Source: Candidatus Cloacimonadales bacterium (GTDB taxonomy: Bacteria; Cloacimonadota; Cloacimonadia; Cloacimonadales; JAIOQZ01). Taken from it: 64,000 nucleotides of DNA. A program made the position numbers and the translations under genes. The stretch's first letter is position 1, and each line of letters starts with the position of its first letter. Below, piece by piece: positions 2,273 to 62,100 of this stretch. Under the pieces are notes generated by a model that searched no databases, was not told the origin of the DNA, and was given only the letters and a program-made list of their open reading frames with translations. The stretch is from positions 1,632,001 to 1,696,000 of the forward strand of contig OY762463.1 of assembly GCA_963665815.1 (NCBI GenBank), written 5' to 3'.

Positions 2273-3301
2273 TTACTTGTTTACTGACTTCTCAGAGAAA
2301 GTTAACTTAACACCTTCCCCACAGTTTCTGCACATTTTTATTGCAGATCTGTTCGTCAGAATGGTATTCCTCATTTTCTGGAATTTTTCGTTCTTAAAAA
2401 TAGATTTTACGGAATTTGTTTTTACATTGCCAACAGGATAATCAATATCTTTGTCGAAACAACAGACTGCCATTTCCCCATTCCAGTTTATCACAGGCTG
2501 ATCCCAGATTCTGCGGCAGCGATTCTTAATACCAAACTTCAACTCAAAATCATCACCTGAAATCTTGTAACGTCTGTATTTGGGGTTTTCCGGTAGAAAA
2601 TTCTTGATGTCATCTTTTTCATAAATCTGAACTGTCTTCAACGAAAGTGAATCTACTCCCAATTCCTTAGCCAGATTACGAATTGACTCTATTTCATGTT
2701 CATTATGTTTCATTACAATAAACTGCCAGAGAATTTTAGGGAATATTGACTTCTTCTTCTTCTTTGCTTCAACAAGCTTCCTGACATTCTCTTTAACCTT
2801 ATCAATTTCACCATTGATGCGGTACTGATTATATGTTTCCTGAGAAGCTCCATCAAGAGATACAATAAGTCTATCAAGTCCTGAATCCACTATTTCCTCA
2901 GCAGGTGGCAGAATGTTAGCATTCGTGGAAACCAATGTATACAGACGCTTAGAGTGTGCATATTTGATCATCTTCACCATGTCTTTATTCAGGAAAGGTT
3001 CTCCCTGATTCCACAAAATCAGCATAAAAGCATATTCGGAAACTTCATCTATCACCTTTTTATACAATTCAAAATCCATGTATCCCTTTGCCCTTTTGAG
3101 GGTTCCGTTTCCGGAAGGACACATAGGACACCGAAGATTACAAATATTGGTCGGTTCAATCATTATAACACCGGGCATTCCCCATACGTATGCCTTTCGG
3201 GTTAAAATCGAAAAACCGTAAGATGCATATTTAAGCAGAGAATTGAACAATCTTTTCCAGGTGAAAATTCTAAAAAAAACATTTATCTTTCTTTTAAGCA
3301 T
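2273..3301 (-). CDS. Radical SAM protein with C-terminal SPASM/twitch-like domain
   Basis: CNLRCPMC motif, GEP and SLDG motifs, C-terminal CRRIW...GEMAVCC...CRNC. Confidence 0.85.
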   Translation of the reverse strand: MLKRKINVFFRIFTWKRLFNSLLKYASYGFSILTRKAYVWGMPGVIMIEPTNICNLRCPMCPSGNGTLKRAKGYMDFELYKKVIDEVSEYAFMLILWNQGEPFLNKDMVKMIKYAHSKRLYTLVSTNANILPPAEEIVDSGLDRLIVSLDGASQETYNQYRINGEIDKVKENVRKLVEAKKKKKSIFPKILWQFIVMKHNEHEIESIRNLAKELGVDSLSLKTVQIYEKDDIKNFLPENPKYRRYKISGDDFELKFGIKNRCRRIWDQPVINWNGEMAVCCFDKDIDYPVGNVKTNSVKSIFKNEKFQKMRNTILTNRSAIKMCRNCGEGVKLTFSEKSVNK

Positions 3302-6970: not shown

Positions 6971-7393
6971 TTATATAACTCCACGAGATCTTTGCATAAT
7001 TGGAGTAGTTGACTCGATATTATTTATCCATAGTGAGACTGTTATGTTATAATATTCCATAAGCTCATCTATAGCTTTTAAGTTTACTTTATTATATCAA
7101 AACTGTTTGATTCTGCTATTATGCAAAGCTATCTCCACTTCAAAAAAGTAAAAAGCAGGCGTTCAGACTATGTGTCAAGCTTAATTCATTGATTAGTTAA
7201 TATACACATAAAAATCATGGAATGCAATTGTATTAACGTAATAATATTCTAGAGTGTTACATCACATTTACAGATGTATTACTAATGCCGGCATATTAAA
7301 ACTTGATGAATTGATAATGTCGGCTGTTTTATTATGACAATTTTATTAAATACTCAGTTCAGAACTCATGAAGCAAGCTTAAAACAAACATGT

Positions 7394-8809
7394 TCAATCC
7401 TTTGTAACCTGATTCTTAACATAATATTCCTCAAGTACATGCTGTCCAACTTGCTTAAGTAAAAAAATGTAAACCTTTAGAAGATTTTCAATCTGCTTTC
7501 TGAATTTTAAACATTCATAAATATTGTTTTTAAAACTTCCATCTGAGGCAAAATTGATATAACAGGAAGAACATAAATATCTTGCCCAGCAATTAGCACA
7601 TGTTTTCTCTCTGAACTCAATCCATTTATTAACAATAACTGACATTCCCTGATAATCCAGTCCATCTTCAACAGAACCTATTTTAAAATCATGATCTATC
7701 TTCTCACAAATGTAATATGATCCCTCAGATGAAACAAAAAGCTTCTGATTTCCAGGAACACATGTTTTATAGCTTATGTACTCACCATACTCACGCTTAT
7801 GAATAAAAGAAAGTGAATCCATAAAAATATGATTATCCAAAGACATATCTCCGCTTTTCAGACCTTGCACTAAGTCAAAGATTTCGGAGTTACCTTTTAC
7901 ACTATCCATGTCACTGTTAAGAAAATACTCGGTATAATACTGCTTTCTCTCATCATGTGTTGGATGCATTCTGGATATTCTCAGATTCAATTTAAGATTC
8001 TTTCGTAAATCAACAAGTTTGTTGTATTCATCTAAATTTGTAACAGTAGCCAACAATAGAATATTCTGACTATGCTTATCGATTTTACTTTTGATTAACT
8101 CAATATTTCGCTCTACTATATTGTATGTGAATGTTCCGTTAGCATGGACTCTATGTTTATCATGAATCTCTTTCAACCCATCAAAACTTATTGAAATGTT
8201 AAATGCATGCTTTACTAAATATTCAATGTTCTCTGAATCAAGTAGATATCCATTTGTTGTTATTGCATATCTAATGTTAAGATTTAAAGTGCTGCAATAC
8301 TGTACAATCTTTTCTATCAGATCCATATTAAGTAAAGGTTCTCCCCCATAAAATCCTACAAGAAGGTCTTTTCTACCGTTCTTTAAGCAAATCTCGTATA
8401 CTTTTTGAATCGCAGCAATCGCTATTTCATAGGTCATTACTTTGCTGGAATGTTTTCTCAATTTATTTTCTTCGTAAGAACCACCATAAATACAATAAGA
8501 ACATCTGAAATTGCAGTTTTCTGTAATACAAAGAGTTATCGCTTCAGGGCAAATACTCTCAGCATTTACTTCAGGTTTAAAGTACACTGCATCCTTATCA
8601 TCGATACTACTTAACAGAGTTTGAAAATCATTGTAAATTTCTCTCGCATTCCTGAATATCCCTATATATCTTTCGACATAGTCTTCCCCAGACATTGATA
8701 TCAAGCTATTCAATGTTTTATACACCACTTCATTAATTCTGACCATTTGTCCTGTTACATCAATATAAATGTAAAACTCATTCTCAAACTTGAATTTCTT
8801 AATATTCAT
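7394..8809 (-). CDS. Radical SAM/SPASM peptide maturase (cluster 1)
   Basis: TENCNFRCSYCIY, FYGGEPLL, ITTNG; SPASM cysteines CVPG..LFV..G..YICEK and CANCWARYLCSSC..C; N-terminal ~80 aa RRE-like extension. Confidence 0.9.
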   Translation of the reverse strand: MNIKKFKFENEFYIYIDVTGQMVRINEVVYKTLNSLISMSGEDYVERYIGIFRNAREIYNDFQTLLSSIDDKDAVYFKPEVNAESICPEAITLCITENCNFRCSYCIYGGSYEENKLRKHSSKVMTYEIAIAAIQKVYEICLKNGRKDLLVGFYGGEPLLNMDLIEKIVQYCSTLNLNIRYAITTNGYLLDSENIEYLVKHAFNISISFDGLKEIHDKHRVHANGTFTYNIVERNIELIKSKIDKHSQNILLLATVTNLDEYNKLVDLRKNLKLNLRISRMHPTHDERKQYYTEYFLNSDMDSVKGNSEIFDLVQGLKSGDMSLDNHIFMDSLSFIHKREYGEYISYKTCVPGNQKLFVSSEGSYYICEKIDHDFKIGSVEDGLDYQGMSVIVNKWIEFREKTCANCWARYLCSSCYINFASDGSFKNNIYECLKFRKQIENLLKVYIFLLKQVGQHVLEEYYVKNQVTKD

Positions 8810-9789
8810 TACCGGCTCAACCTGAATTTATAATAATTCTGTGAACCAGAATCTTGAATATGAACAAATTTGTCATCCACAATCATTGTATTCATAACAG
8901 TATAAATATTATCGGGAATCTTCCAGAATTGAATAAGATTAAAATTACTGTCATATTTACAGAGATACTCTCGAATCTCGAAAGCAGCTTTTATCTGCGA
9001 AGAACTTGAGTTTTTGTAATCTATTTTTGCATCAGTATTTCCCATAAACGTATGAATCACAAATATCTCATTATCAGAAGAATCGATGTTCAACACATAA
9101 GACTTCTCTGTTGGAAGATTGTCTGAAAACAAATTCTCAACTGAAATTAGCTCGTTTTTAACTTCATCATACATATAGATGTTTGATTTGTACTGAGTAA
9201 ATGCTAAATAATATTTTCCATTAGATTTCAACAATGAATTTTCTCTTTCCGTTCTTTCTATACCTATGTCATCGAATAACTTACTAAGGTCAATCCTTTG
9301 CTTTACTGAATCATTTTCTATGTTGAAGTACTTGCAGCCTGGGAGAGCATAGAATTGGGAGAAAGACACTTTGCCTTCATCCAGATATAAATCTGAAGGC
9401 AATACAGCTTTCATTGAAGAAAGAAATTCACCTTCTATGCTAAAGGTTGAGATTCTATTACTACCAATATCCGATACCAGTAAATTATCTCCAACAACAA
9501 GTATTTTCCCATTTAAAGACAATTCTCCGGGACCTTTACCTTCTTTACCAATCTTGTGAATAAATGAATAATCCTCTGAACTATATACATATACTGAGTG
9601 AGATGTATCATAGAAGAAAATCTTCCCGTCACTATATTCTACATCGAAAAATCCCATATTCATTTCACAATTTTCCTGCCATCCTAATGAATCTGCAACG
9701 GTTAAAGAACCTTCTTTCAATCGTGAGCTACATCCGAAAATTAACAGAGATAACAAAATAGATAAGACAATAATTCTTTCTTTAAACAT
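8809..9789 (-). CDS. 6-bladed beta-propeller (NHL/TolB-like) lipoprotein (cluster 1)
   Basis: Lipobox LIFGC; IGKEGKGPGEL and LLVSD..SNRISTFS..GEFL blade motifs; stop overlaps the rSAM start. Confidence 0.8.
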   Translation of the reverse strand: MFKERIIVLSILLSLLIFGCSSRLKEGSLTVADSLGWQENCEMNMGFFDVEYSDGKIFFYDTSHSVYVYSSEDYSFIHKIGKEGKGPGELSLNGKILVVGDNLLVSDIGSNRISTFSIEGEFLSSMKAVLPSDLYLDEGKVSFSQFYALPGCKYFNIENDSVKQRIDLSKLFDDIGIERTERENSLLKSNGKYYLAFTQYKSNIYMYDEVKNELISVENLFSDNLPTEKSYVLNIDSSDNEIFVIHTFMGNTDAKIDYKNSSSSQIKAAFEIREYLCKYDSNFNLIQFWKIPDNIYTVMNTMIVDDKFVHIQDSGSQNYYKFRLSR

Positions 9790-9832
9790 ATAAACTCCAA
9801 TTCATAGTGAGGGAATTATCTATTATTTATTG

Positions 9833-10003
9833 TTATTTAGAATTTGAAGATTGACCACCAAGAAGGTCGTCAATGTAAGCATTTGAAGAGTGAACACTTG
9901 ATGCATGTGCAACGTCGCATTCACAGACTGATTTTCTGCCTTTAACTTCGTTTTCATCACTTGTTGTAACAGGGCTAGAAACTACATCATAAGTACTTGT
10001 CAT
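9833..10003 (-). CDS. Putative RiPP precursor peptide, 56 aa: MTSTYDVVSSPVTTSDENEVKGRKSVCECDVAHASSVHSSNAYIDDLLGGQSSNSK
   Basis: Translated by hand (below the ORF-track cutoff). Strong SD TAAGGAG 6 nt before ATG 10003, TAA at 9835-9833, CxC motif, first gene before the propeller and rSAM. Confidence 0.8.
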   Translation of the reverse strand: MTSTYDVVSSPVTTSDENEVKGRKSVCECDVAHASSVHSSNAYIDDLLGGQSSNSK

Positions 10004-10104
10004 ACATTTCTCCTTAGATATTATAATTAGTTGTTGATAATTCCCTCATTTCCATACATAATTGCCTTTTGAGCATGTATGACAATTATCAAACACCATA
10101 AGAC

Positions 10105-10133
10105 AATAAAAAGTATTTTTTTTTACATGTCAA
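10105..10133 (-). promoter_or_regulatory. Putative sigma70 promoter of RiPP cluster 1
   Basis: TTGACA (10133-10128), 17-nt spacer, TTTATT. Confidence 0.5.
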
Positions 10134-10362
10134 TTTTATTTTCTTCAGAATATTTCTTAATGGTAAATTTAATTTTCCCCTTTCATTTTCATAGATTTTA
10201 AAAACAAGCATGATATTTTACATGAAAAATATCAGGACTGGAATTACGGTACCCTAATTAAAGAATAATTACCTCAAATGTATATTTCACACTTATAGAA
10301 GCAAATAAAACTACACTAACTCAAAAACTCGTATTACTGAAGTAGAGTAGATAAAATCCCAC

Positions 10363-10400
10363 AACAGGAGTTCAGAAATTTTTCGGACTCCTGTTTTTTT
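10363..10400. terminator. Intrinsic terminator-like hairpin, possibly bidirectional
   Basis: AACAGGAGT...ACTCCTGTT stem with a T-run on +, 10 nt beyond the stop of the minus-strand gene at 10410. Confidence 0.6.
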
Positions 10401-10409
10401 CTCGAAAAC

Positions 10410-11177
10410 TTACCCAAAATGCTTTGTAATTGCCTGAACACCTTTCTGCAGGATTTCTCTCAGTTGTAATTGTTTTTCGGAATCCACTTCTCCTGTCCAT
10501 TCATCCATAAAAGTTTTCTTAAACTCAATTGCCAGACACATTGCGTTATCGGGATAAAAATGATTAATCCAACGAGGGAAATATCCGCCGGGGAACTTCA
10601 CATTTACCCTGGCATCAATCTTATGGTCATCATAAGTCTCTTCCAGCATAGCTTGCTGGAATTCTTTCACGATAGGAAACCACTTCTCATCAAGATTGCT
10701 TGTTCCAATAATTATTTCAGGGTTCTTTTCAGGATCATCATATTCCTGCCCCGGTCCTAACCTGTGATGATTATAAGAATGTATATCCAGCACCAGAAAT
10801 TTACCGAACCTTTTCCTCATCTCATCCAGATGATACTTGATTCCTTTATAGAAATCGTCATATATCGCAAGGCTTGCCTGTACCTGTTCTTCTGAGGGTT
10901 GGACTTTTCTGACAGTCATACCCCAGGCATCCTCCGGTTTTATATAGACAGCTCTGTCTCGAGGTCTGTTTAGATCGGTTTCAAAACGACTGAACTCGGC
11001 AATAACCGTATTCTTGCATATTTCTGTAAAAAAAGCTGTAAACGGATCTTCTTCTCTGAGCTGATCAGCATCGGAAATACCCAGATTAGCTTTTGTTAAT
11101 TCGTTGAGTTTATGGCCGTTATGCACGGCAGTACATATAAAGGGTTCCTGATATGTAAATGTTGATATTGCAGACAT
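10410..11177 (-). CDS. N-formylglutamate amidohydrolase family protein
   Basis: AVHNGH, REEDPFT, SRF..DLNR, LDIHSY, FPGGY and LAIEF motifs. Confidence 0.88.
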   Translation of the reverse strand: MSAISTFTYQEPFICTAVHNGHKLNELTKANLGISDADQLREEDPFTAFFTEICKNTVIAEFSRFETDLNRPRDRAVYIKPEDAWGMTVRKVQPSEEQVQASLAIYDDFYKGIKYHLDEMRKRFGKFLVLDIHSYNHHRLGPGQEYDDPEKNPEIIIGTSNLDEKWFPIVKEFQQAMLEETYDDHKIDARVNVKFPGGYFPRWINHFYPDNAMCLAIEFKKTFMDEWTGEVDSEKQLQLREILQKGVQAITKHFG

Positions 11178-15603: not shown

Positions 15604-15630
15604 AAGGCAGTTCTAACTGCCTTTTTTTTT
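15604..15630 (+). terminator. Intrinsic terminator after rpmA
   Basis: AAGGCAGTT-CT-AACTGCCTT followed by a T-run. Confidence 0.85.
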
Positions 15631-15696
15631 ATGCTGAATTTTCTGGAATATTATAATAAATCAATACACAAAACATCATGGAGGTAGGTACAAATC

Positions 15697-30778: not shown

Positions 30779-31264
30779 CTACGCATTATTCACCTGACCA
30801 AGTTTCTTCTGTATCTTATGAGCAAAAGGAAGCTCAATAAACCTTGGTAGAGAGTTATGTTCTTTTTTGAATGTCAGAAAGATAAATTTGTGTTCCAGCA
30901 GATTCAGGTTCGCAGAAATATCATATAGCGGAGGTATAACAACAGTTACCATCTTCCCCACTCTGGCAAGCTCATCAAAAAATCGTTGAGGATCGTCCAC
31001 ATGTTCCATTGTGTGAGAGCATAAAACAGTATCGAACTGCTTATTTGCAAAGGGCAGGTTATAGATATCGTTTACCAGCACAAAATTAGGAACATCCTTA
31101 TGCTGGAAGATATCACAATTAGTTCCTCCACCGTCGGTTTTACCGCAGCAGATGTTAAGATCCCATTTTTGTTTCTTCAGGATTCGAGTTTTCTCAAGTT
31201 TGTAACTGATATAGTGGGCAATAACTACATAAGCAATAATAAAAGCGACAATAATATAAAACAT
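30779..31264 (-). CDS. Class I SAM-dependent methyltransferase-like protein with N-terminal TM helix
   Basis: LNICCG motif I variant; LPFANKQFDTVLCSHTMEHV. Confidence 0.75.
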   Translation of the reverse strand: MFYIIVAFIIAYVVIAHYISYKLEKTRILKKQKWDLNICCGKTDGGGTNCDIFQHKDVPNFVLVNDIYNLPFANKQFDTVLCSHTMEHVDDPQRFFDELARVGKMVTVVIPPLYDISANLNLLEHKFIFLTFKKEHNSLPRFIELPFAHKIQKKLGQVNNA

Positions 31265-31412: not shown

Positions 31413-33143
31413 TCATCCATGATTGAGCATATTGAAGTACTCTCCCTTCACTTCCATTAATTCGCCGTGACTTCCCTCTTCAGATATTGCTCCATTACTC
31501 ATAACACATATCTTGTCACATTCTTTTATTGTAGACAACCTGTGTGCGACAATTATCACAATAATATCATCCGGTAATTTGTGCAGTGTTTCCATTATGC
31601 TTTTTTCACTGATTGGATCAATGTTTGATGTTGCTTCATCCAATAATAGAATTTTAGGATTCTTTATCAGAGCTCTTGCCAGACTTATCCTTTGTTTTTG
31701 CCCAATTGAAAGACTGTTTCCTTTTACTCCGACATGCGTATCATATTTATCCGGCAAGTTCATTATTTGAGCATGGACAGATGCCATTTTACAAACAGCT
31801 ACAACATCTTCATATCCTGCTGACATGTTCGCAAATCGTATATTATCCATAATACTGCCATCAATTAGAACTGGTTCCTGATCGACAATTCCGATATATT
31901 TTCTTAATGCTACAATTTGACTATCACTTAGCTTATCACCATTTATATAAATCTCACCTGATATTGACTTGTGTAATCCTGATAATATTTTCAATAAAGT
32001 TGTTTTTCCACATCCGGACACTCCCACAATACCTATTTTCTCTCCCTGATTAATCTCAATATTCACATTTTCCAATATAGGCTTGTCTTCTTTGTAAAAA
32101 AATTTCAATTCTCTGATTGAAAGCCTTTCAATTACAGATATGTTATAGTTGTAATCTATTACTTCACTCGGGAATGTCATTATTTCTTTAACTCGCTTCA
32201 GGGAAACCATTGCCGTTTGCAATCTTACATTTAAATCAATAAGATTCCTTGCAGGATTGAACAAATACCTGATAAAAGAATTGAATGCAATCATAGAACC
32301 AATTGTCAAACGGTCGTTAATAATCTCATATCCACCATACCCAATAATTATTAATGGAATCAGACCAATTATCATATTGGAAGAAACCTGGTAGATACTG
32401 GTTATCTTTGTAAGTTTTACAGATTCTCTATATGCTGACTTCGATGAAGAGAAAAACTGGTAAATACTGAATCGGCTTCGAAGAAACTGTTTTATCAGAC
32501 GAATAAGTGATAAACACTGCTCCAACGTAGAAACGCTTTTTGCCATTACTTCGTATGTAACCTCTGTTTGCGCTTTAATTCTCTTTCCGAAGAACACGGA
32601 TAACCATACATATGGAATTATTAGAATTACTGAGAATAATGCAAGCTTGAAATGAATTGTAAAAATCACTGATAATCCTGCAATTAAATACAGAAGATCC
32701 TTGAGTACCGCTACAAATGTTTCTGCGAAAAAAGATCTCAGACCTTCAGAATCACTATTTATCCTGGAAAGAAGATATCCTGAACTGTACTTGTTAATTG
32801 TACTCAGAGGAGCATTATTAAGCCTTTCTAAAAGTGCAACTTTAATATCCAATATGATTTTATCATTTACCCGTTTCAACATTAAAGAATGAATATAGGC
32901 TACCGCATTCTGAAATAATAGTATTGATAAAGTTATACCAACTAATACTATTAGTTCCGTTAAGTTCTTCCCGGGTAATGTAACATCAATAATTCTTCTT
33001 GTTATTAATGGTGTAGGCAAGATCAGTAGAGAAAGGATAATGATCAGACAGCAGACAAGCAGAATACTCTTCATGTATTTTTTATAGAAGTTCAGATATA
33101 AAAATCTGATAAAATTCAAGTTTTCATTCTTTGCTATTTTCAT
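31413..33143 (-). CDS. ABC exporter (TMD+NBD), no C39 peptidase domain (cluster 2)
   Basis: N-terminal TM helices, GVSGCGKTT, LSIGQKQR, LLLDEATS, VAHRLST; 576 aa. Confidence 0.92.
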   Translation of the reverse strand: MKIAKNENLNFIRFLYLNFYKKYMKSILLVCCLIIILSLLILPTPLITRRIIDVTLPGKNLTELIVLVGITLSILLFQNAVAYIHSLMLKRVNDKIILDIKVALLERLNNAPLSTINKYSSGYLLSRINSDSEGLRSFFAETFVAVLKDLLYLIAGLSVIFTIHFKLALFSVILIIPYVWLSVFFGKRIKAQTEVTYEVMAKSVSTLEQCLSLIRLIKQFLRSRFSIYQFFSSSKSAYRESVKLTKITSIYQVSSNMIIGLIPLIIIGYGGYEIINDRLTIGSMIAFNSFIRYLFNPARNLIDLNVRLQTAMVSLKRVKEIMTFPSEVIDYNYNISVIERLSIRELKFFYKEDKPILENVNIEINQGEKIGIVGVSGCGKTTLLKILSGLHKSISGEIYINGDKLSDSQIVALRKYIGIVDQEPVLIDGSIMDNIRFANMSAGYEDVVAVCKMASVHAQIMNLPDKYDTHVGVKGNSLSIGQKQRISLARALIKNPKILLLDEATSNIDPISEKSIMETLHKLPDDIIVIIVAHRLSTIKECDKICVMSNGAISEEGSHGELMEVKGEYFNMLNHG

Positions 33144-33161: not shown

Positions 33162-34556
33162 TTACGAAGTTTCACTCTGGTTGAAGTAATTATCGATGCT
33201 TTCCTTACCTACATGGTCAAGAAGTCTGACATATAGTTGAAGCATACCTTCAATTTCACTTTTCTTTTCTGAGCATATTGAATTACTTGGAGATATATTT
33301 TCTGATCTCACGAAACTCACATAGCATAAATCGCAAAGATGAGCTCCCCAGCACTTGCTGCAGTTCTTCCCTTTGAAATAAAGCCAATCTCTTTCAATTT
33401 CATTTTTTCTGGCAGAAATTATTCCTTTATCAAGATCTCCTATGGGCATTGCGTGATCAATTTTCTCACACATATGAAAATTTCCTTCGGGAGAGACAAA
33501 CAACATTGCATTTCCCGGAGAACAGGCATGATAATTGACATCACTTCCTGAGTTTCTGAAATGTATCCTCTTTATACTTGTAATCAGATCCAGGTCTCCA
33601 CTCAAAAGCTTGCGATTTTTAAATCTATCTATAAATCCTGCTCTTCTAGCTCCGGTAATATCATCAATTCTACTTACTTCATCTTCATCAAAAGATTCAA
33701 TTTTTTCAGCATCATCGCTATCCCAAATCATAGATACATGTGAAAAAATTGGATTATCCTGTTGCAGATCAAAAAGTTCAACGAAAATTCCGGGAGTTGC
33801 CGCAGTAGCTACGAAATTAACATATTCCCTGTAATAATCAGGATACCTGTCTGAAATAGGCTTCAAGTTGTTCATTATTCTATCATAGGTCGGTTCACCA
33901 TTCAAAGCGATTCTGTATTTGTCATGAATTTCTTTTGTCCCATCTACACTTACAAATAATCTGATCTTGTTGGCTAAAAAGAAATCGATATGCTCTTCTG
34001 ACATTGCATAACCATTAGTAGTAATTGAAAATGTTATTTCGGACGGAAGCTCTTTTAAGTTTTTCACAATGTATTTCATAATGTCGAAATTTAATAGTGG
34101 TTCTCCTCCATAAAATCCGATATTCAGGTTCTCTTCCACATTGTAGTTTTCGTCAATCCATCTGATAAACTTGTCTGCTATCGTATAAGACATTTTCTTT
34201 GTTGAACTTGTTCTTGTGTAAGAATAGCTGTCCGAGTAGATACAGTACTTGCATTTTAAATTGCAGGCTTCAGTTAACCCAATAACAATTTTGAAAGGAT
34301 TTTTCTTCCTGTTTTCGTTCTTGATAGGCAAAAATGAGAATCCATTGCTTTCAGCTCTGTTTTTCATGTAATTCCGGAATTTATCGAAAACTTTCTCTAT
34401 TTCTGCATTTTCAGCATACTTATCAATATACTCATCTCTTGACATGCCCAAAAGATCATAAAATGTATTATACATGAATTCATTGATCTTAATAATGTTC
34501 GAGTTTAAAGAATCATAAAAGTAGACACCACTTACAGCTCTAAACTTTTTAAGCAC
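33162..34556 (-). CDS. Radical SAM/SPASM peptide maturase (cluster 2)
   Basis: TEACNLKCKYCIY, FYGGEPLL, ITTNG; CSPG..LFV..G.FHMCEK and CSKCWGAHLCDLC..C; RRE-like N-terminus. Confidence 0.9.
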   Translation of the reverse strand: MLKKFRAVSGVYFYDSLNSNIIKINEFMYNTFYDLLGMSRDEYIDKYAENAEIEKVFDKFRNYMKNRAESNGFSFLPIKNENRKKNPFKIVIGLTEACNLKCKYCIYSDSYSYTRTSSTKKMSYTIADKFIRWIDENYNVEENLNIGFYGGEPLLNFDIMKYIVKNLKELPSEITFSITTNGYAMSEEHIDFFLANKIRLFVSVDGTKEIHDKYRIALNGEPTYDRIMNNLKPISDRYPDYYREYVNFVATAATPGIFVELFDLQQDNPIFSHVSMIWDSDDAEKIESFDEDEVSRIDDITGARRAGFIDRFKNRKLLSGDLDLITSIKRIHFRNSGSDVNYHACSPGNAMLFVSPEGNFHMCEKIDHAMPIGDLDKGIISARKNEIERDWLYFKGKNCSKCWGAHLCDLCYVSFVRSENISPSNSICSEKKSEIEGMLQLYVRLLDHVGKESIDNYFNQSETS

Positions 34557-34573: not shown

Positions 34574-35596
34574 TTATGATCCCTTCACTTCGGATTTCGT
34601 TAACTTAAATATTATTCCATTATAGTTAGATACCAGAAATACTTTTCCATTTGAGGACAGTATTTCTCCTGACAAAGTCATCATATCTCCGGGTAGCTCA
34701 CATGAAGATTTCAATTCTCCTGTGATTGAGTATTCGCAAACAAACTCTCTTATATCATAAAAATGCTTAATATCTTCTATCTTTGTCAGTGATGAATTTT
34801 TCTTCTGGGCTGGATCTACACCATATGCTCTTTCAACAACGTAAAATCTGTCGTTCATCAGCACTGCATTACTTGTTTTTGAGTATTCCGGAACAGCATC
34901 CCTGTTTACTGATGATGAGAACTGAATTTTCTCATTATTCAAATCTTTGATACACCCAACTCTATTTATTGGTACTCCTATTAGTGAATTCTCATATTTT
35001 ATAATATCTATATGTTTATTTTCTTCCTTTAAATCATTATCCGAGCAGAATTGATCCAACTTCCTCACAGTTTTAAACTCTCCATTATTATATACCGTTA
35101 ACTTATAATCAGGTGCAAAATGAGCAGTTGTAACATATATGCTGTCTTCATAATTGTATACTTTACCAATCGGGTGGAATTTCTCAGCTTTAAGAAAATC
35201 ACCTTGCTTAGAAATCCATTGTATTCTGGAATTAGCAAAATCACCTACAACTATATCACCATTTTTATCAAATGTGAATGAGTTAGGATAAAGAAATTCT
35301 CCGGGACCTCTGCCCTTACTTCCAAATTTTCTCAGAAATTTCAAACTGTTAATCTCGTAAACATAAAAAACTGCATTATCAATATCCAATACGTACAGTT
35401 CTTCACCATCAATATTGTGAATATTGTTAGCTCCAAAAGTAAAGTTTTCATCATCCTGCCATCCCAATGAATCAGCTACTACTAATACAGATTTTGAACC
35501 ACTTTCACCACTCTTGTCCTGCCTGACACAAGAAACAGAGTTCAAAATTATAAGTGTTAATACTGTGAACGTTAAACTTGCTATTCCTTTCCTCAT
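34574..35596 (-). CDS. 6-bladed beta-propeller lipoprotein (cluster 2)
   Basis: Lipobox-like NSVSC; FGSKGRGPGEFLYP; IVVGD..NSRIQW...G.FL. Confidence 0.8.
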   Translation of the reverse strand: MRKGIASLTFTVLTLIILNSVSCVRQDKSGESGSKSVLVVADSLGWQDDENFTFGANNIHNIDGEELYVLDIDNAVFYVYEINSLKFLRKFGSKGRGPGEFLYPNSFTFDKNGDIVVGDFANSRIQWISKQGDFLKAEKFHPIGKVYNYEDSIYVTTAHFAPDYKLTVYNNGEFKTVRKLDQFCSDNDLKEENKHIDIIKYENSLIGVPINRVGCIKDLNNEKIQFSSSVNRDAVPEYSKTSNAVLMNDRFYVVERAYGVDPAQKKNSSLTKIEDIKHFYDIREFVCEYSITGELKSSCELPGDMMTLSGEILSSNGKVFLVSNYNGIIFKLTKSEVKGS

Positions 35597-35669
35597 ATAT
35601 TCTCCTAAAATTAAGCTATCCGATGTTTTCCCTACTTATAAAATACAGCCCTTCAACTTAATTATCTTA

Positions 35670-35888
35670 CTATGATATACCTGAACTTGTATTGTTGCTG
35701 GATGAATTTACCAGTTTTCTGGCAGCATTCTGTTTAGCGCATCTTCTAGTTGATGCATCTCCAGCAGGATATGGTAAATTCTCACAAGTTTGACATTCCT
35801 GTGTGCTTCCACTGCCTGTGTCTTTATCAAGTGTAGAAGCTGTACTCACTATTTCCATTGAACATAAGTCAATTACATTATTATCCAT
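35670..35888 (-). CDS. Putative RiPP precursor peptide, 72 aa
   Basis: SD GAGGAG before ATG; four Cys including CQTC; Ser/Thr/Asn-rich; first gene of the propeller-rSAM-ABC operon. Confidence 0.82.
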   Translation of the reverse strand: MDNNVIDLCSMEIVSTASTLDKDTGSGSTQECQTCENLPYPAGDASTRRCAKQNAARKLVNSSSNNTSSGIS

Positions 35889-36150
35889 AATTTCTCCTCA
35901 TAATTTTATTACATCAGATAGCTTTTATTGTTTATTGTTTTGTTTAGTATTTTCTATCTTGCTAAGTAAAAAATATGTCGAAGGGGAAAACAAATGAGAT
36001 CCCTCTTACCTCTACATATATAAATCTTTTCTAAAGAACTTTTTGATATGTGTCAAGTTTTTTGTTTATACAAACTCATTTATGAATATTAAATTCATTC
36101 TAAAGAGATTAATGATTATCATATCAATTCCTGCTCACCATTATTTCCAC

Positions 36151-36637
36151 CTTCCCTCACAAAAAGCGGAAGTTGGTGAATGTTCTCCAAACCTTCACCG
36201 AGTCATAATAGCACAATCTTTCAGTTGTAAGTAGCCGATCTTATTCTTTTTTACTGTATAATAAATTTTCCCGTGAAGAAATCCTGAAGCCTTGGAAGGA
36301 TTTCAGGTGAGATTTATGGTTCCAGCTTGCTGGAAATACATTTAAAAAAGATGTCATTTCTTTTGCTTCGTTTTCTTTAGTCATATAAAGAAAATGAAGG
36401 ACTGTATCAATACTCTATCTCTTTTTGTTCTCTTCCCTCACAAAAAGCAGGAGTTGGTGAATGTTTTCCAAACCTTCACCGAGTCATTAAGTCAAAGAAA
36501 TTACAGAAAATCAATACTCTATCTCTTTTTGTTCTCTTTCCTCACAAAAAGCAGAAGTTGGTGAATGTTTTCCAAACCTTCACCGAGTCATTAAGTCAAA
36601 GAAATCACAGAAAATCAATACTCTATCTCTTTTTGTT
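36151..36637. repeat. 104-bp tandem repeat (2.2 units, 36406-36637) plus a separate 56-bp core copy (36151-36206)
   Basis: ATCAATACTCTATCTCTTTTTGTT starts at 36406, 36510 and 36614. The core CCTCACAAAAAGC...GTTGGTGAA-N13-TTCACCGAGTCAT occurs three times. Confidence 0.92.
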
Positions 36638-36700
36638 GACAGAAATTATCCCTTACAAGTTGATGTTCCTGAAAAAACATTAAAAAAGCAGGAGATTTCT

Positions 36701-38044
36701 ATGCCGTATATTTCTAATACTGAACAAGATAGAAAAGAAATGCTTCAGAAAATCGGTGTTTCCGAATTTAAGGAACTTATAGCCGATGTTCCGGAAAAAC
36801 TCCAGTTAAATAAACTGCTTGATCTGGAAGAAGCATATTCAGAAATCGAAATCACACGTAAAATGACCTGTCTTGCTAACAAGAACAAAACTACCGTTAC
36901 AACAAACTCATTCCTCGGTGCAGGAGTTTACGATCACTTTGTACCGGCTGTTGTGGATCACGTTATATCCAGACCGGAATTCCTCACAGCTTACACACCT
37001 TATCAGGCAGAAGTAAGCCAGGGAACACTCCAGTACATCTATGAGTATCAGACATTAATCTGCAACCTTACCGGAATGGAAGTAGCTAACGCCGGTATGT
37101 ATGACGGTGCTTCCGCTGCAGCCGAAGCTATTCTTATGGCAGTCAGAAAAACCAGAAAGAATAAAGCGGTTATCGCAGGAACAATCAATCCGGATTACGT
37201 TAAAGTAATTAAAGCCTATACAGAAGGTATTGGTGTTGAAATTGTTGTTGTTAACAATAAAAACGGACTTGTTGATGCTGAAGATCTGAAAGCTAAAATG
37301 GATAATGATACAGCCTGTTTCCTTCTGCAGACACCTAACTTCTGCGGTAGTCTGGAAAATCCGTTTGAAATAGAAGAAATCGTTCACAGCTTCAAAAAAG
37401 CTCTTTATATTGTCGCAGTAGATCCTATCTCTCTTGCAGTTCTTAACGCACCATCAGAATACAAAGCTGACATCGTTATCGGTGAAGGTCAGGTTCTGGG
37501 TAATAAACCTAATTTCGGTGGACCATTATGCGGATTCTTTGCAACTCATACTTCACTTGCCCGTATGATGCCGGGACGTATTGTTGGCGCAACCAAAGAC
37601 GTTGAAGGTAAAAAAGGCTATGTCCTTACACTTCAGGCTCGTGAACAGCATATAAGAAGAACCAAAGCAACCTCAAACATCTGTTCCAACCAGTCTCTCG
37701 CAGCTCTGGCAGCAACAGTCTACATGGTAACAATGGGACCGGAAGGGCTCAAAGAAGTTGCAGTTCAGTCTACCACTAAAGCACATTACCTTGCAGAAAA
37801 ACTCACAGCTATAGATGGCGTAAGTCTGGCAACAGATAACCCATTCTTTAAAGAGTTTGCCGTTAAGTTCGACAAGCCTGTAAAAGATGTTCAGAAAGCT
37901 CTGCTCGAAAAAGGTATTATTGCCGGTACAGATCTTTCAAAATGCGGATTTGAGAACACCCTTCTCATTGCTGTAACAGAAATGAAGACAAAGAAACAAC
38001 TCGATGAATTAGTTGAAGCTGTTAAGGAGGTATTCAATGCCTGA
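36701..38044 (+). CDS. gcvPA: Glycine dehydrogenase (decarboxylating) subunit 1
   Basis: FLGAGVYDH, TAYTPYQAEVSQG, AREQHIRR.KATSNICSN. Confidence 0.97.
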   Translation: MPYISNTEQDRKEMLQKIGVSEFKELIADVPEKLQLNKLLDLEEAYSEIEITRKMTCLANKNKTTVTTNSFLGAGVYDHFVPAVVDHVISRPEFLTAYTPYQAEVSQGTLQYIYEYQTLICNLTGMEVANAGMYDGASAAAEAILMAVRKTRKNKAVIAGTINPDYVKVIKAYTEGIGVEIVVVNNKNGLVDAEDLKAKMDNDTACFLLQTPNFCGSLENPFEIEEIVHSFKKALYIVAVDPISLAVLNAPSEYKADIVIGEGQVLGNKPNFGGPLCGFFATHTSLARMMPGRIVGATKDVEGKKGYVLTLQAREQHIRRTKATSNICSNQSLAALAATVYMVTMGPEGLKEVAVQSTTKAHYLAEKLTAIDGVSLATDNPFFKEFAVKFDKPVKDVQKALLEKGIIAGTDLSKCGFENTLLIAVTEMKTKKQLDELVEAVKEVFNA

Positions 38045-39620: not shown

Positions 39621-39683
39621 AACCCTCTGTCTCGTATACTCGACATCTCCCTGCTGATGTTTTAGCAAACATCAAGGCAGAAC
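39621..39683 (+). repeat. Dispersed intergenic repeat element, copy 1
   Basis: AACCCTCTGTCTC..TCGACATCTCCCTG-hairpin-AGGCAGAAC; inverted homolog at 61810-61877. Confidence 0.7.
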
Positions 39684-39904
39684 TTTGTCTGCATCAGTCT
39701 GTGCAGTTCTGTAATACGCGTAGAGACATCCGGACAGTTGACTCAGATATTGCATAATTATAAAAATACAGCGAAAGAAAGTCAATACCGTTTTGCAAGT
39801 GGAATATGTAACAGTCACGAATAATTTTCTTGACCTATATCTTATACCAGAATCAACTTCTGATCAGGATTTCCCAGTGAATTTGATTAATAAGGAAAAT
39901 TAAG

Positions 39905-61623: not shown

Positions 61624-61809
61624 TAATTTTTTTGATACGTTGGAGCTTTGCAGGACTTGTATTGTTAAGACTAGTTTCCTGAGGATGTGAATTGTTATAG
61701 ACCGTAGATCGTGACAGGCTTTATTTTACTATTCGACATAAACAACCTGAGTCAAACATCCGGTTGCCTCTACGAGATTGGAGAACCTGTTCAAGTTTTG
61801 ACGGACATT

Positions 61810-61877
61810 GTTCTCCCTGGATGTGTTCCTTTAGAACCATCCACAGGGAGATGTCGACAGAATGGAGACAGAGAGTT
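61810..61877 (-). repeat. Dispersed intergenic repeat element, copy 2
   Basis: Minus strand AACTCTCTGTCTC..TCGACATCTCCCTG-hairpin-AGGGAGAAC, homologous to 39621-39683. Confidence 0.7.
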
Positions 61878-62100
61878 AAACAGGAACATTGCCACAGTCA
61901 ATGTACTCCGAAAATAGCTTCTTCTCAACATCAAAATCATCTATAATCGTAAAATCCTGCAATACAGCCAATTCCCCTCTATAAAGAGGAGTAATTCATT
62001 TCAAATTGAAATGAATTGGGGTGTGTATGGGACTTAACATCACACCATTTAGACGGATTTTCCAACAATTCTAAGGGTGATTGAGGGTGATCCACAATCC

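Follow-up and report, generated by a model that had tools for sequence, protein, structure and literature searches.

The genes considered here lie on the minus strand of the window, by which we mean the whole 64-kb stretch of DNA that was analysed, in two clusters that have the gene order small ORF, propeller gene, maturase gene in common (Table 1). In cluster 2 these genes and that of an ABC exporter are followed, in the same minus-strand operon, by a short methyltransferase-like ORF; next come genes for an ECF sigma factor and for a PDZ protein. The methyltransferase-like ORF (30779-31264, minus strand, 161 residues) may be truncated or mis-started; it matches the SAM-methyltransferase profiles only in their distal part, with residues 62-104 at profile positions 44-88 of 95. 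Scored against the CcpM-type family TIGR04068 of NCBIfam, the maturases of clusters 2 and 1 reach 223.8 and 226.7 bits, respectively, against a cut-off of 500, and by these profile scores both are relatives of the CcpM-type Cys-rich-peptide family rather than members of it. A third radical SAM/SPASM gene of the window (2273-3301, minus strand) comes nearest to a tungsten-cofactor oxidoreductase maturase, with 122.4 bits against a cut-off of 380; its neighbours are BatA/VWA genes, and no small ORF stands out as its partner.

Table 1. Genes and helix arms of the two clusters, in positions of the window
Feature	Position	Strand	Basis or remark
Cluster 2, helix 5' arm, AAGCUAUCUGAUGU on the mRNA strand	35911..35924	-	sequence, repeat search, pair probability
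Cluster 2, putative RiPP precursor, 72-codon ORF (P0001)	35670..35888	-	SD GAGGAG 35899-35894
Cluster 2, helix 3' arm, ACAUCGGAUAGCUU	35613..35626	-	sequence, repeat search, pair probability
Cluster 2, DUF5128/NHL-type six-bladed beta-propeller, lipoprotein-like N-terminus	34574..35596	-	SD AGGAG 35606-35602
Cluster 2, radical SAM/SPASM peptide maturase, CcpM-like	33162..34556	-	profile match
Cluster 2, ABC exporter, fused permease and ATPase	31413..33143	-	profile match
Cluster 1, helix 5' arm, UGAGGGAAUUAUC	10036..10048	-	sequence, repeat search, pair probability
Cluster 1, putative precursor, 56-codon ORF, C-x-C motif	9833..10003	-	SD AAGGAG 10015-10010
Cluster 1, helix 3' arm, GAUAAUUCCCUCA	9808..9820	-	sequence, repeat search, pair probability
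Cluster 1, propeller paralogue	8809..9789	-	25% identical to cluster-2 propeller
Cluster 1, radical SAM/SPASM maturase	7394..8809	-	31% identical to cluster-2 maturase

The small ORFs that head the two clusters both encode hydrophilic products rich in Ser, Thr, Asn and Asp, and both have a strong SD at a spacing of 5-6 nt and remain open for 56-72 codons in a genome of 37% GC. The product of the cluster-2 ORF contains four Cys; it has no match in Pfam or NCBIfam and, within the limits of the search, no homologue but itself among 5.8 billion proteins. From position, size, Cys content and SD we infer that the two small ORFs encode RiPP precursors. An earlier note on this DNA had spoken of paralogous clusters, and for the precursors this description holds in position only, since no similarity is detectable between the two ORFs and the second of them is without a homologue.

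Each of the small ORFs is bracketed by a pair of complementary arms. On the plus strand of cluster 2, AAGCTATCCGATGT is found at 35613-35626 and ACATCAGATAGCTT at 35911-35924, and on the minus strand AAGCTATCTGATGT (35924-35911) is complementary to ACATCGGATAGCTT (35626-35613) over 14 contiguous pairs, the sole non-Watson-Crick pair being U(35916)-G(35621), the plus-strand equivalent of which is A-C. An inverted-repeat search likewise returns these arms, as 14 nt of 93% complementarity with 284 nt between them. The 5' arm ends 11 nt upstream of the SD and 22 nt upstream of the AUG of the precursor ORF, while the 3' arm starts 43 nt past the stop codon of that ORF and leaves gaps of 6 nt to AGGAG (35606-35602) and of 16 nt to the ATG of the propeller gene at 35596. 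The stem of 14 pairs with one U-G that the earlier note had described at this place is thus present in the sequence, and the 6-nt gap to AGGAG agrees with its remark that the 3' arm lies just 5' of the SD of the next gene.

The note had furthermore claimed a companion stem in cluster 1, and here TGAGGGAATTATC (10048-10036) and GATAATTCCCTCA (9820-9808) indeed form 13 perfect pairs on the minus strand around the small ORF. The 5' arm ends 32 nt upstream of the AUG of this ORF, and the 3' arm, which begins 12 nt past the stop codon, leaves a gap of 18 nt to the AUG of the propeller gene. The two elements differ in the spacing between their arms, which is 215 nt in cluster 1 and 284 nt in cluster 2, and in the gap from the 3' arm to the next SD, which is 9 nt in cluster 1 and 6 nt in cluster 2, and the most tightly conserved spacing is that from the 3' arm to the next AUG, 16 against 18 nt. 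We can therefore agree with the note that the stems occupy the same position in both clusters, with the 3' arm 5' of the SD and at nearly the same distance from the next ATG, and a comparison of the arms confirms that their sequences are unrelated. All four SDs (35899-35894, 35606-35602, 10015-10010 and 9798-9795) lie outside the arms and are unpaired in the helix. The instances of the bracketing stem are two in number, and both come from one genome. The 5' arm of cluster 1 also has a near-copy, TGAGGTAATTATT, with 2 mismatches (10264-10276, minus strand), at a distance of about 215 nt in the upstream direction, which could pair with the same region of the cluster-1 3' arm (22 nt, 77% complementary) and may be an alternative pairing partner or a product of chance.

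The simplest explanation of such stems is coincidence, that is, that two pairs of AT-rich intergenic pieces happen to hold complementary runs of 13-14 nt. Taken over the whole window, stems of at least 13 pairs with at most one G-U and a loop of 100-400 nt are not elevated in number, the minus strand having 4 against 3.0 +/- 1.9 expected from 40 dinucleotide shuffles, and the plus strand a single one that is the cluster-1 pair again. Non-cognate pairings of native intergenic pieces likewise reach at least 13 pairs in 49 of 10368 cases and at least 14 in 19, two of these 19 being the true pair, and it should also be mentioned that the stem statistic was picked in the earlier note after the data had been seen. 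Coincidence is further favored by the duplex energies that RNAduplex assigns when interrupted duplexes are allowed, in so far as cluster 2 is ordinary by this measure, with 436 of 2000 shuffles as good; cluster 1 is unusual, with 3 of 2000. The placement of the stems is however in poor agreement with coincidence. Of the four minus-strand stems, two are those that enclose the small ORFs, and when the real flanks, consisting of 150 nt of leader and the spacer up to the next gene, are shuffled, a stem of at least 14 arises in 2 of 2000 cases for cluster 2 and one of at least 13 in 8 of 2000 for cluster 1. Together with the native pairings this gives a probability per locus of about 0.001-0.005, and the second locus serves as a replication of the first. 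Furthermore, when 55 genes are scored for pairing between their two flanks, the small ORFs take ranks 1 and 2 (with 14 and 13) and the other 53 genes score at most 11, an outcome for which random ranking gives a probability of 1 in 1485. The shuffled-sequence control by which the earlier note had proposed to judge its own claim consequently speaks for the stems as far as local placement is concerned, whereas the window-wide count stays at expectation. We conclude that the placement of both stems is jointly far from chance and that the pair of stems is very probably a pair of real features, coincidence being quite improbable.

Partition-function folds were calculated for five transcript lengths per cluster, of 291-1101 nt overall and of 361-1101 nt for cluster 2, and the mean pair probability is 0.97-0.98 for the cluster-2 helix and 0.78-0.98 for that of cluster 1. 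Both helices are present in the MFE and centroid structures, with helix free energies of -19.5 kcal/mol in cluster 2 and -18.7 kcal/mol in cluster 1, and both are thus thermodynamically dominant in the predicted folds. The sense strand of the whole cluster-2 region is more structured than its shuffles (z -3.83, 0 of 100), as against a z of -1.51 for the antisense strand, and the interior alone is weakly structured, with a z of -1.79; the whole cluster-1 region is weak on both strands, with z values of -1.36 and -0.81. The MFE structure of cluster 1 also contained an outer extension of the helix that covers the propeller SD, and this extension was rejected, 1230 of 3000 shuffled flanks being as good. 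The cluster-2 helix has no outer extension in the fold.

A further question is whether the complementarity is a property of the RNA or of the DNA. The earlier note saw an argument for RNA in a wobble appropriate to the coding strand in both clusters, and this argument does not stand, since the 13-bp core of cluster 1 is without a wobble on the mRNA strand and its wobble-type extension, of 15 pairs with one G-T, exists on the opposite (plus) strand only. With one wobble for each strand the orientation carries no strand information, and we have therefore discarded it as evidence. The remaining observations, though not decisive, favor an RNA helix over a DNA repeat recognised by a protein, because the two pairs of arms have nothing in common in sequence and the window yielded neither a recombinase nor a target-site duplication nor extra copies. 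DNA sites that are recognised by one protein or invertase normally have a common sequence or consensus, and unrelated arms at equivalent positions fit better with a constraint on complementarity than with one on sequence. None of the 57 window ORFs scanned encodes a recombinase or transposase, no direct repeat of the kind left by target-site duplication is found beside the arms in either cluster, and further copies of the arms within the window are limited to near-matches with 2 mismatches that occur at chance frequency.

One DNA-level reading is that of an inverton, in which a recombinase would flip a cassette of 215-284 bp with the small ORF and so switch the precursor on or off, the operon promoter staying fixed. 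Invertons are known, also inside or around genes, as described in two reports (PMC10028968, PMC11892184). Inverted repeats of 13-14 bp around a few hundred bp match the geometry that inverton finders look for, an imperfect repeat (13/14) is acceptable at the DNA level, and on the plus strand the repeat of cluster 1 extends a little further. We nevertheless consider an inverton unlikely, for apart from the lack of an invertase gene among the window ORFs scanned the two repeat pairs have no common sequence, the segment that they enclose is an ORF with its own SD and not a promoter, and promoter-like matches around cluster 2 are not enriched, with 2 found against 5.5 expected. Highly improbable, finally, is the reading as a MITE-like cassette with terminal inverted repeats or as a structured non-coding RNA in which the ORF is fortuitous. 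The length and the terminal repeats are MITE-like, large structured RNAs typically have a closing stem, and the two ORFs are mutually unrelated, the second being without a homologue; a MITE is however at odds with the lack of a target-site duplication at the arms and of other arm copies in the window beyond the chance-level near-matches, and a non-coding RNA with the strong SDs and the long open frames of both ORFs, with the weak structure of the interior taken alone, and with Rfam, the best match of which in 35000-36800 has 22.5 bits against a threshold of 48 and belongs to an unrelated family.

An RNA helix of this kind presupposes that both arms are transcribed. A TTGACA hexamer is found upstream of each 5' arm, at 36056-36051 and 10133-10128, and hints, if weakly, at 5' arms that are part of the transcript; an alignment of the two leaders revealed no common promoter or other match beyond this hexamer. 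Terminator-like sites number 0 in 35300-36750 and 9500-10450, and as there is no local intrinsic terminator after either small ORF, the usual attenuator device is absent.

Other repeats were noted in the window as well. A 104-nt tandem repeat (36406-36637, plus strand, 2.2 copies, 97% matches) is found in the 812 intergenic nt that separate precursor ORF 2 from gcvP, and its 35-nt core, which holds a GGTGAA-N13-TTCACC hairpin, recurs with 1 mismatch in a third, dispersed position 250 nt away, at 36172-36206; Rfam returned only spurious sub-threshold matches for the tandem repeat region. In addition, inverted matches of 14-15 nt connect unrelated intergenic regions on both strands (39639-39788 with 61759-61908, and 6971-7120 with 15608-15682), which suggests a short dispersed repeat or a common regulatory motif.

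Relatives of the clusters are few. A protein search with the propeller gave 10 matches, 2 of which are full-length relatives, and the best non-self match of the maturase, which has P0013-P0019 as its nearest relatives, is about 30% identical. When an alignment of the two window propellers with the related propellers P0003 (47% identical) and P0004 was used as a profile query against genome contigs, 80 propeller loci were found, but most of the protein was matched only by three of them (L001-L003), which come from one Cloacimonadales MAG, and a tblastn search of all 80 for the rSAM maturase or the precursor gave no match. In one of the three (L001, 4979-8896) four DUF5128-type propeller lipoprotein paralogues stand in tandem with no radical SAM gene within 6 kb, which shows that this family of propellers also occurs outside RiPP clusters. 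The generality of the element was assessed on 8 of the 236 plasmid records that hold a distant match to the maturase; one (L088) was dropped because it has no annotated precursor. In the 7 distant Firmicutes rSAM loci that remain, the best stems around the 12 annotated precursors are of 6-12 nt and none is of at least 13, and the element is therefore not general to rSAM RiPP operons. The best shuffle fraction among these precursors, 6 of 300, belongs to the 12-bp stem of a lachnocin-family precursor on a Paraclostridium sordellii plasmid (L084). This bracket (2683-2694 and 2939-2950) has one terminal T-G, and the distances are 28 nt from the end of its 5' arm to the ATG and 45 nt from its 3' arm to the start of the maturase; with 6 of 300 shuffles it is not significant among 12 tests, and no relatives of this precursor were found in the plasmid set.

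If the stems form in the operon mRNA, a long-range helix of 13-14 bp would join an arm in the 5' leader, just upstream of the RBS of the small ORF, to a second arm in the spacer just upstream of the RBS of the next gene, and would thereby close the precursor cistron, with its RBS, ORF and short trailer, into one RNA domain. The cistron would in this way be marked off as a separate post-transcriptional unit, the helix serving either as a processing site for a double-strand-specific enzyme of the RNase III type or as a clamp that protects the ends, and the outcome would be a stable and abundant precursor message beside a scarcer enzyme message. That the position is equivalent in both clusters, though their proteins are only 25-31% identical, is in support of an mRNA helix, and we find it quite possible, if somewhat short of probable, that a closing helix of this type isolates the precursor cistron for processing or stability. 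More tentatively, a closing helix that is free in sequence and fixed in position might define a self-contained and long-lived precursor mRNA module that is either excised or clamped, much as an rRNA is held in its processing stem, and that possibly also recycles ribosomes onto the small ORF; this bolder proposal includes the notion that two clusters of ancient divergence have each kept the helix on their own. The flanks are predicted to pair, but the substrates of RNase III classically measure about two helical turns, or some 20 bp or more, and the duplexes of 13-14 bp fall short of this size. No rnc gene was seen within the 64 kb of the window, the genome being of about 4 Mb.

As a secondary possibility, the helix may influence how ribosomes reach the downstream gene, the SD of which follows it at 6-9 nt. 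In its full form this explanation holds that a stable structure directly 5' of the downstream SD tunes translation of the propeller and the maturase, or that a closed loop brings the region of the stop codon close to the RBS of the small ORF itself and so supports re-initiation on the precursor. It draws on the closeness of the 3' arm to the next SD (6 and 9 nt) and AUG (16 and 18 nt), and on the 5' arm, which ends 22 and 32 nt upstream of the precursor AUG, so that initiation and helix could compete; at such distances the arm falls inside the 30S footprint or at its border. Ribosome binding at the precursor ORF can moreover control downstream RNA events in the microcin C operon (PMC4231749). 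A role in translation is nevertheless rather unlikely, given that neither SD is paired in the helix and that the extension predicted to cover the cluster-1 SD does not exceed chance.

[quoted passage not shown] The present element resembles this attenuator in its place, after the precursor gene and ahead of the first gene for maturation, and in its presumed aim, a high ratio of precursor to enzyme, but there is here no local GC-rich hairpin with a U-tract, and the spacer instead pairs with the 5' leader across the ORF. An enclosed small ORF is on the other hand known from the mRNAs of type I toxins such as hok (fbi) and Helicobacter aapA/IsoA, in which pairing between the 5' and 3' regions surrounds the ORF (PMC6733600). 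The likeness consists in a small ORF enclosed by upstream and downstream pairing, which in the toxin mRNAs yields a stable conformation that processing can alter. In those mRNAs, however, an anti-SD sequesters the SD, the pairing involves true transcript ends, the product is a hydrophobic toxin and an antisense RNA is present, whereas here the SDs are outside the helix, the arms are internal to a polycistronic transcript and the ORF products are hydrophilic. In rRNA operons, RNase III stems of more than 20 bp flank the 16S and 23S rRNA and thus surround non-coding RNA, which can be excised once they have paired; the element is like them in having complementary flanks around a functional unit within a longer transcript and unlike them in being shorter, 13-14 bp, and in surrounding a coding ORF. 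Invertons, lastly, are similar in that a stretch of a few hundred bp with which an operon begins is delimited by short inverted repeats, but the present repeats have no invertase nearby in the window and no common consensus, and they enclose an ORF rather than a promoter.

Searches of the literature outside subscription journals and supplementary files yielded no account of a helix bracketing a RiPP precursor gene. The suggestion of the earlier note that the element is undescribed is consistent with this, with neither an Rfam match in 35000-36800 nor a description in RiPP operons having been found. If real, the element would be a new variant of long-range mRNA helices addressing a known problem. 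RiPP operons have to produce their substrate peptide in large excess over the enzymes, for which local attenuators, internal promoters and gene dosage are the known devices. Should the repeats instead constitute a DNA switch, they would point to phase-variable production of the peptide. If the RNA reading is true, a long-range bracketing helix would represent a new post-transcriptional route to the stoichiometry of substrate and enzyme, it would provide genome miners with a simple signature by which unannotated precursor genes without homologues could be spotted, and it would matter for heterologous expression, in which the leader and the spacer are usually discarded.
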